The notes beneath the pieces are model-generated. The model ran no database searches and was not told where the DNA came from. It worked only from the letters and a program-made list of their open reading frames with translations. From a virus, in the UHGV virus genome UHGV-0286550: 21,407 bases of DNA; one strand, given 5' to 3'. The translations under genes were made by a program, and so were the position numbers. Of this stretch, positions 9,336-9,663 are shown piece after piece. How positions within the stretch are numbered: the first letter of the stretch is position 1; each line of letters starts with the position of its first letter.

Positions 9336-9381
9336 CAGACCAAAACATGTGTTTTGGTCTGCCAAAAGTAATGTTTTGGTC
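9336..9381. promoter_or_regulatory. Tandem palindromic operator-like sites: perfect 12-bp arms CAGACCAAAACA-TG-TGTTTTGGTCTG (9336-9361) plus CCAAAA-N6-TTTTGG (9362-9379); half-site TGTTTTGGTC recurs at 9350 and 9372
   Basis: Seen in sequence. The sites end 4 nt before the ATG of the next gene, which has no SD; they could act as DNA operators or as an RNA hairpin masking the start. Confidence 0.5.
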
Positions 9382-9384
9382 ATT

Positions 9385-9663
9385 ATGAAAATTGAACAAA
9401 TCGGAATGGCAGCCTTCCGGCAGCAGGCTGAAAGCGGTGGCGTGGATGAGTTCGTCGTGCAGCGGTTCGATGGTGTGTATCACCTCTTCGCTGTGAATCG
9501 CCGCGCCGGGGTGTCCTATTTTCTACAGGAACGCCGTGGCGATTACAAGACGTGGCTGTCTCTTGACCGTGCCGCCGCGTTCCTGTCGGGGATTGGTGTT
9601 TCACGTTTTACCGTGCGTTTTGAGGATAACAAACATGCTGAAAAAGATGATCGGAGCCATTAA
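9385..9663 (+). CDS. Hypothetical early protein (92 aa)
   Basis: First ATG after the palindromic sites; overlaps the gemA-like start by 29 nt. The ORF-track start at 9349 lies inside the palindrome. Confidence 0.45.
   Translation: MKIEQIGMAAFRQQAESGGVDEFVVQRFDGVYHLFAVNRRAGVSYFLQERRGDYKTWLSLDRAAAFLSGIGVSRFTVRFEDNKHAEKDDRSH

Follow-up and report, generated by a model that had tools for sequence, protein, structure and literature searches.

The window analysed here, a stretch of viral DNA of 21,407 nucleotides, is a Mu-like prophage of E. coli, and the part of it that was tested is 100% identical to E. coli O166:H15 strain JNE21-009. The gene order runs from a CI-type repressor on the - strand (1057-1704) through a Ner-like gene that ends at 2123, the transposase (2123-4165) and a MuB-like ATPase (4184-5077) to several small early genes in a row, and then to a 136-aa gene (phrog_8805, 8820-9230) that is shared with the lytic phage Av-05 and with P1-like plasmids. 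A gap of 154 nt follows. It contains a double palindrome that abuts the next gene, a + strand gene for a 92-aa protein (phrog_7844, 9385-9663) without a Pfam match, and the element to which this palindrome belongs always precedes that gene. The first 29 nt of gemA (9635-10048) overlap the 3' end of the 92-aa gene, and gemA is followed by a strong + strand terminator (10055-10075), identified by the terminator scan as the true terminator of this stretch, and by mor (10144-10611). The 92-aa gene is an early-operon gene of the prophage, as an earlier note on this DNA had proposed, and RefSeq annotates the identical start, ATG 9385.

Several other features were recorded along the prophage. The AT-rich host flank carries a JUMPstart (ops) RNA element (58.5 bits) on the - strand at 29-67. 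The prophage itself seems to have its left end near 727, and three ATTCTGGGCG repeats that resemble transposase-binding sites follow at approximately 745, 818, and 868. The left flank of the window differs from that of the 100%-identical JNE21-009 prophage, which is inserted in the baseplate gene of another prophage. The 136-aa gene displays about 80% DNA identity to the gene of phage Av-05, was also found in lambdoid prophages beside ead/Ea22-like genes, and is a mobile gene cassette inserted in the early operon. Directly 3' of gemA, the + strand terminator AGCCCCTGCCTTGCAGGGGCT is followed by a T run (10055-10114 region), and a promoter-like TGTACA-16-TATAAT was seen at 10087-10114, just before mor. 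Because this promoter-like site lies after the terminator, mor may have its own promoter and not be reached by early-operon read-through as in Mu. In some relatives, by contrast, an additional gene separates gemA from mor. A perfect palindrome with 12-nt arms (AAAAGCCCCACC/GGTGGGGCTTTT, 10579-10604) at the extreme 3' end of mor resembles a bidirectional terminator. An AT-rich palindrome (AATCGTTTTTAAAA/TTTTAAAAACGGTT, 18892-18922) occupies the gap that separates the protease gene from the G-like virion morphogenesis gene, which is where Mu has its strong gyrase site.

The double palindrome before the 92-aa gene consists of two adjacent parts on the + strand. Hairpin 1 (regions 1:2, 9335-9362) is a perfect palindrome with 13-nt arms, GCAGACCAAAACA at 9335-9347 and TGTTTTGGTCTGC at 9350-9362, around a 2-nt centre. 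The earlier note had recognized this repeat, and only its size, given there as 12-bp arms at 9336-9361, needed correction. Across the 21.4 kb of the window, no perfect inverted repeat exceeds these 13-nt arms; by our own arithmetic (21,407 positions x ~3 spacer lengths / 4^13), the chance expectation for such a repeat is approximately 0.001. The second, shorter palindrome that had been noticed at 9362-9379 was found (regions 3:4, CCAAAA-GTAATG-TTTTGG), with 6-nt arms. It forms unit 2 of a 40-nt element, in which unit 1, CCAAAA-N6-TTTTGG, occupies 9340-9357 and the 4-nt spacer TCTG 9358-9361; across elements the spacer is constant in length and variable in sequence. A larger imperfect palindrome spans 9338-9381, with 20-nt arms (9338-9357 and 9362-9381) that are 85% complementary. 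The four arms alternate (CCAAAA, TTTTGG, CCAAAA, TTTTGG), and therefore each arm is able to pair with either neighbour. Three exact copies of the half-site TGTTTTGGTC were present: the two already described on the + strand at 9350 and 9372, 22 nt apart, and one on the - strand at 9338-9347. With at most one mismatch allowed, there were 5 matches in the window vs. 1.67 expected, and 0 of 100 shuffles reached 5. The ATG at 9385 lies 3 nt beyond the last half-site and 5 nt beyond the palindrome.

Conservation and distribution of the element

The palindromes of the window are the E. coli version of a 40-nt element with the formula [CCA(A)-N10-12-(T)TGG]-N4-[CCA-N12-TGG] that stands before the start codon of the 92-aa gene. 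The element was present upstream of the gene for every relative of the 92-aa protein with readable context, yielding 28 distinct elements in 11 lineages. These comprise Escherichia, Intestinirhabdus, Leminorella, Erwinia (two Erwinia psidii prophages), several metagenomic contigs, and three contigs of a non-Mu phage. The end of the element was located 2-11 nt 5' of the ATG in 11/11 lineages. Three genomic contexts were encountered: adjoining gemA, apart from gemA, and, in the non-Mu phages, just before the small terminase subunit. For the non-Mu contigs L100 and L101 the gene had been called from Met8, 21 nt downstream of the conserved MKxE start. Mu, VW-6B, and Kp4852-3 contain gemA and are missing both the 92-aa gene and the element, which rules out a general feature of gemA operons.

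An alignment of the 28 elements revealed that 10 of the 12 triplet columns are invariant (CCA and TG in unit 1, CA and TGG in unit 2) and that the other two are conserved to at least 90%, as are CCAAA and TTGG of unit 1. Information content was 1.15 bits per column in unit 1, 0.53 in the spacer, and 1.23 in unit 2; the figure for the 30 nt upstream was 0.28. The starts of the two 18-bp dyads are offset by 22 bp, and this spacing is constant in all 28 elements and 11 lineages. Units 1 and 2 are similar, agreeing at 9-14 of 18 positions, which makes the element a direct repeat of 22 nt as well. Covariation was seen in the flanks of unit 1 (AGA/TCT in E. coli, TTA/TAA in Erwinia, and also TTAA/TGAA). 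In more distant relatives unit 2 reads CCAAAATAAYCGGAWTGG, with a GGA resembling Shine-Dalgarno, and this ribosome-binding motif is found in unit 2 of most lineages. The outlier L098 (55% protein identity) carries a different palindrome, CAAAAAGATCTTTTG, and a protein without several otherwise invariant residues. A separate observation concerns loci L006, L096, and L099, where TCGGAATGG in unit 2 recurs at codons 6-8 of the ORF (I-G-M, 9400-9408 in the window), the point at which some callers start the gene (Met8). This recurrence suggests that the leader may have originated as a duplication of the 5' end of the gene, or, alternatively, the GGA motifs flanking the start codon in these three loci could form a CsrA-type pair.

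Within E. coli, 93 records match the region. Homology breakpoints were found in many of these at query position 533 or 537 (9332 or 9336 in the window), which is where the palindrome has its 5' edge. Since homology starts at this edge, the element travels with the downstream gene and the upstream DNA is replaced. The palindromes were intact in an alignment of four different E. coli upstream contexts. Among 22 distinct E. coli-lineage sequences, 5/35 arm positions and 7/10 loop positions were polymorphic, the loop columns 35-38 of unit 2 varying within E. coli; at the third codon positions of the gene the corresponding count was 50/92 (Fisher p = 4e-5 vs. the arms). The arms of the element are under purifying selection. 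Three internal single transitions in the arms result in G-U pairs on the + strand, and the arm change in E2348/69 is a compensatory double transversion from C-G to A-U. Mismatches in hairpin 1 among E. coli sequences were confined to the terminal (outermost) pair and the loop-closing pair. The ratio of G-U to A-C substitutions was 3:2 within E. coli and approximately 4:1 across lineages, with too few events for significance.

These data demonstrate that the element is real, conserved, sharply bounded, gene-linked, and single-copy. The earlier note had named absence of the palindrome from relatives as the finding that would speak against it; the palindrome was conserved though the upstream DNA was unrelated, and together with the purifying selection on the arms this bears out the proposal that the palindromes are a functional cis element for the gene at 9385. 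The search for the half-site elsewhere in the prophage, also proposed there, yielded no further copy, whether in the window or in the 16.5 kb of prophage beyond it. A single copy fits local control. It also excludes a dispersed repeat of the REP/BIME or MITE type, and an operator of the prophage repressor, a Ner-like protein, or another global phage regulator was likewise rejected, as there are no further copies of half-site or dyad and the non-Mu carriers are without those regulators.

A pattern search of both strands of 2.9 million viral contigs returned only the upstream regions of this gene family, the locus L038, and one tandem-repeat array. No element was found among isolated phages in the phage collection searched. 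Rfam 15, searched at gathering and at permissive thresholds, gave no relevant family match for 9200-9500 (best at most 18.7 bits vs. family thresholds of 37-100 bits), and a literature search on the early regions of Mu-like prophages yielded nothing on the element. Although previously undescribed, the element falls within a familiar general type of cis-regulatory element.

Locus L038 (5942-5981; IMG/VR contig 3300028965_000008, also in E. coli SMN152SH1, locus L103) carries a near-identical double palindrome, CCAAAAGTGTTGTTTTGG-CTTA-CCAAAACGATCGTTTTGG. By our own arithmetic, the number of chance matches expected in the collection is approximately 3.5e-4. The L038 element is situated in a nin-type region of the lambdoid kind: a terminator precedes it, and a 59-aa gene begins 115 nt downstream, with a Doc-family toxin gene next. 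Its neighbourhood contains no homologue of the 92-aa protein, and an 87-aa ORF considered as such showed no homology. The L038 element is either a convergent operator or a target that it has in common with the element of the window.

RNA folding, the start region, and the 92-aa protein

As RNA, hairpin 1 consists of a 12-bp stem with 6 G-C pairs and a 4-nt loop. In the nested fold, 11 bp (regions 1:4) enclose a 3x3 internal loop, 6 bp (regions 2:3), and a 4-nt loop. This nested fold is the minimum-free-energy structure of 9330-9400 (-21.8 kcal/mol) and also of 9300-9420, and it ends at 9381, about 3-4 nt before the ATG. The tandem and nested folds are near-equal in energy in the E. coli form, and 9341-9356, a representative pair of hairpin 1, has an ensemble probability of 0.81. 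Compared with shuffles, folding stability gave z = -2.5 for the + strand and z = -3.8 for the - strand. The elements of distant relatives reach -9 to -16 kcal/mol with folds that differ by lineage; pairing in their unit 2 is limited to 3-4 bp and forms no hairpin, and the nested fold of the window (11 + 6 bp, 3x3 internal loop) is absent outside the E. coli lineage. A stable RNA hairpin beside the start codon, as predicted in the earlier note, is consequently a property of the E. coli lineage and does not extend to distant relatives, which share no common fold. Across the alignment, 83.5% of cells were paired under both the tandem and the nested model. Covariation exceeded that of shuffles (0/500 and 3/500 reached it) and of slid controls, though unit 2 pairing lapses in distant relatives.

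Shine-Dalgarno pairing of positions -21 to -3 with the 16S 3' end was calculated at -2.2 kcal/mol, the second weakest of 31 + strand genes (median -7.0), in agreement with the claim that ATG 9385 lacks a Shine-Dalgarno sequence. Pairing of positions -14 to +3 was average (0.60 vs. 0.53 +/- 0.13 for other genes in the window), which rules out start-codon sequestration as the whole explanation.

Both hairpin loops also contain start codons. Mini-ORFs of 13 and 5 codons begin at ATG 9347 and ATG 9371, respectively, and terminate at a TGA that overlaps the main ATG (ATGA). All E. coli variants have A or G at position 9371 and so retain either ATG or GTG as a start codon, and an equivalent mini-ORF, ATG-GCG-TTA-TGA, was seen in L096 and L097. 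An in-frame GTG at 9349 (ATG in most relatives) leads to a 104-aa protein given by gene callers (P0001, 337 members), in which the N-terminal extension is not conserved beyond E. coli. This 104-aa call, started by many gene callers at the ATG or GTG in the loop of hairpin 1, is probably wrong.

The 92-aa protein is small and arginine-rich and belongs to a narrow family, with approximately 20 clusters among 5.8 billion proteins. The order of its secondary structure is strand-helix-strand-strand-strand-helix-strand. In the fold search the best structural matches were ribosomal protein eL38, which is RNA-binding, and the FtsH periplasmic domain; the rest were uncharacterised viral proteins. Structure comparison revealed no helix-turn-helix, ribbon-helix-helix, or AbrB-type fold. 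The earlier suggestion that the product of the gene at 9385 might be a DNA-binding regulator was accordingly not borne out, as neither a helix-turn-helix nor a ribbon-helix-helix fold was found.

A sigma-70-like promoter had no consistent placement at the element on either strand at 16 loci, and none passed the scan in the window, whose own context contains GGTAAT only, without a -35 element. A -10-like hexamer (AATAAT, GATAAT, or CATAAT) ends 6-9 nt before the palindrome in three of four E. coli upstream contexts, and in L029 a promoter-like TTAACC-16-TATATT overlaps unit 1. In 7 or 8 of the 11 lineages, the count depending on L101 with its 45-aa ORF, the stop of the upstream ORF falls somewhere from 8 nt 5' of the element to 31 nt within it; given this position of the stop, the element is an intercistronic spacer within one operon. 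To our knowledge, none of the consensus sequences of IHF, CRP, FadR, IclR-type regulators, or sigma-54 fits across the lineages (informal comparison). The scan further listed the hairpin as terminator-like on the - strand, with 5 T in 8 in the tail. A Rho-independent terminator on the + strand was rejected, the stem being followed by CAAAAGUAAUG without a U tract, and so was an antisense RNA ending at the hairpin, since no - strand promoter was found in 9330-9720.

Known systems and rival explanations

The mazEF promoter of E. coli reportedly has an operator of the 'alternating palindrome' kind, said to have been described by Marianovsky and co-workers in 2001. The term 'alternating palindrome' is used in PMC5888573 and PMC6343021. 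By analogy, this operator and those of toxin-antitoxin genes appear to be the closest DNA relatives of our element: as in mazEF and type II toxin-antitoxin operators, a middle arm is complementary to both the upstream and the downstream arm, and two adjacent dyads precede the first gene. The likeness assumes control by the operon's own product. However, the operators of mazEF and toxin-antitoxin genes overlap a mapped promoter and are bound by AbrB or ribbon-helix-helix antitoxins, whereas the element described here has no consistent promoter, is intercistronic, and is accompanied by neither fold.

On the RNA side, the closest analogues would appear to be phage translational operators and the hairpin-rich, Shine-Dalgarno-poor leader of rpsA. 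Autogenous translational operators include the coat-protein hairpin of RNA phages at the replicase start, the operators of T4 gp43 and RegA, and the three-hairpin rpsA leader of E. coli. The element resembles these in its predicted RNA structure at a start where the Shine-Dalgarno sequence is weak or missing, in accompanying its gene, and in having a small protein as presumed ligand; it also overlaps the ribosome-binding region, as translational operators do. In contrast to these operators, which have one defined fold with covariation, only triplets and spacing are kept here, and the fold varies from lineage to lineage. In the Com-mom system of phage Mu, the small protein Com binds a hairpin just 5' of a start that is poorly accessible and alters the structure next to it. 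Similarities to Com-mom are the Mu-type phage, the hairpin just upstream of the start, and the small phage protein (here a candidate). Com, however, is a zinc-finger protein acting on the late gene mom, without sequence or fold similarity to the 92-aa protein, and Mu is without the gene and the element. The 12-bp stem in the gap of a polycistronic operon is further reminiscent of terminators and intercistronic stabilising hairpins. Unlike Rho-independent terminators, it has no U tract after the stem on the + strand and the element abuts the start codon. The element is not assignable to any of the compared classes: a DNA-binding fold is missing for an operator, and a conserved fold for the RNA class.

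Because the element is sited just before the start codon of the 92-aa gene in every relative found, it very probably controls this gene. We tentatively favour action on the mRNA at translation initiation, possibly via the gene's own product, a reading to which we give a little less than an even chance. Since there is no consistent promoter, the upstream gene ends at the element, and the product is without a known DNA-binding fold, such translational control appears somewhat more likely than a DNA operator. The element would then be a control element of the 92-aa gene, in a leader or between cistrons, that accompanies this gene from phage to phage. It lies 45 to 6 nt before the AUG (9340-9379), in the region that the 30S subunit must occupy, at a start without a usable Shine-Dalgarno sequence. 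The E. coli RNA is predicted to take one of two near-equal folds, either the 12-bp hairpin with a weak 6-bp hairpin or one interrupted hairpin of 20 bp, and both would hold the last TTTTGG arm in a stem. Because the CCA/UGG triplets and their spacing are invariant, and the fold is not, we infer that a protein reads the two units and thereby sets the level of translation. The best candidate for this ligand would be the gene's own small, arginine-rich product, acting as a dimer. Points counted in favour of translational control are that the sole constant positional relation of the element is to the start codon, the GGA in unit 2, the G-U-leaning substitutions, the compensatory change, the covariation of the unit 1 flanks, and the eL38 match. 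Counted against it are that no single fold is conserved, the average pairing at the start, the 22-nt dyad pattern, and the likeness to L038.

A two-site DNA operator is a serious rival, which we consider somewhat less likely than translational control. A dimer or dimer of dimers would bind the two 18-bp dyads, or a central TTTTGG-N4-CCAAAA dyad with outer half-sites, and would repress a weak local promoter or block early transcription to the 9385 gene, gemA, and mor. The sites are 22 bp apart on one face of the helix, and the dyad symmetry and fixed CCA/TGG spacing with variable centres are consistent with an operator, fixed triplets with variable centres being the classic pattern of operator conservation. 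The lapse of RNA pairing in unit 2 of distant relatives points in the same direction, as do the -10-like hexamers in three of four E. coli contexts and the promoter-like site over unit 1 in L029. L038 shares the architecture 115 nt upstream of a Doc-family toxin-antitoxin pair, and tandem palindromes upstream of toxin-antitoxin genes are normally DNA operators. Against this, no promoter is consistently placed across lineages; in most of them the upstream ORF ends in or next to the element within a polycistronic operon; and a second site is absent from the whole prophage. The sole gene that always co-occurs with the element encodes a protein without any of the three DNA-binding folds compared, and the repressor and Ner-like genes are not common to the non-Mu phages that carry it. 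The two-site DNA operator proposed in the earlier note is, as it was stated there, not borne out by these observations.

A protein-free RNA structure would be quite unlikely. It could serve as a site for RNase III or RNase E, as a 5' stabiliser of the gemA message, or in coupling or uncoupling translation with the upstream gene. The E. coli form is very stable (the -21.8 kcal/mol of 9330-9400), and the nested, interrupted 20-bp helix has the size of an RNase III substrate, which is about 20 bp of helix. Ribosomes that finish the upstream ORF, which in most lineages stops at or in the element, would open region 1 and so alter the folding, and a mini-ORF of 4-6 codons with a TGA overlapping the main ATG is present in the E. 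coli lineage, L096, and L097. However, stability and fold are lineage-specific, pure structure would not fix CCA/TGG while pairing lapses, and the start region is not unusually buried. That the element does not regulate the gene at all, and is instead a weak - strand terminator or insulator or a junction where phage modules recombine, is very improbable. The terminator-like hairpin with its T-rich tail on the - strand, the retention of this tail in all four E. coli upstream contexts, and the homology breakpoints at the 5' edge are compatible with such a role. Yet no - strand promoter in 9330-9720 would feed a terminator, the strong stem and the T-rich tail are both missing in distant relatives, conserved blocks of any function should show a breakpoint at their edge, and the fixed distance to the ATG is left unexplained.

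A more specific form of the translational reading is bolder, and we hold it to be unlikely as a whole: the 92-aa protein, with its eL38-like fold, and the 40-nt element would constitute a self-contained, mobile module of translational autoregulation, in which a dimer binds an RNA operator that has two units and two possible folds and replaces the Shine-Dalgarno sequence of the protein's gene, and which moves between Mu-like and unrelated phages. If true, the module would be a new pairing of phage RNA-binding protein and operator. More generally, if the protein binds its own leader, it would be a small, new fold for nucleic-acid binding whose target is defined. The early-region genes of Mu-like phages are mostly without known function and their control is little understood; the 40-nt element and the 92-aa gene form a compact unit that is recognisable from sequence, and they provide an experimental handle on an orphan family found in E. 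coli, the prophage of the EPEC strain E2348/69 included.
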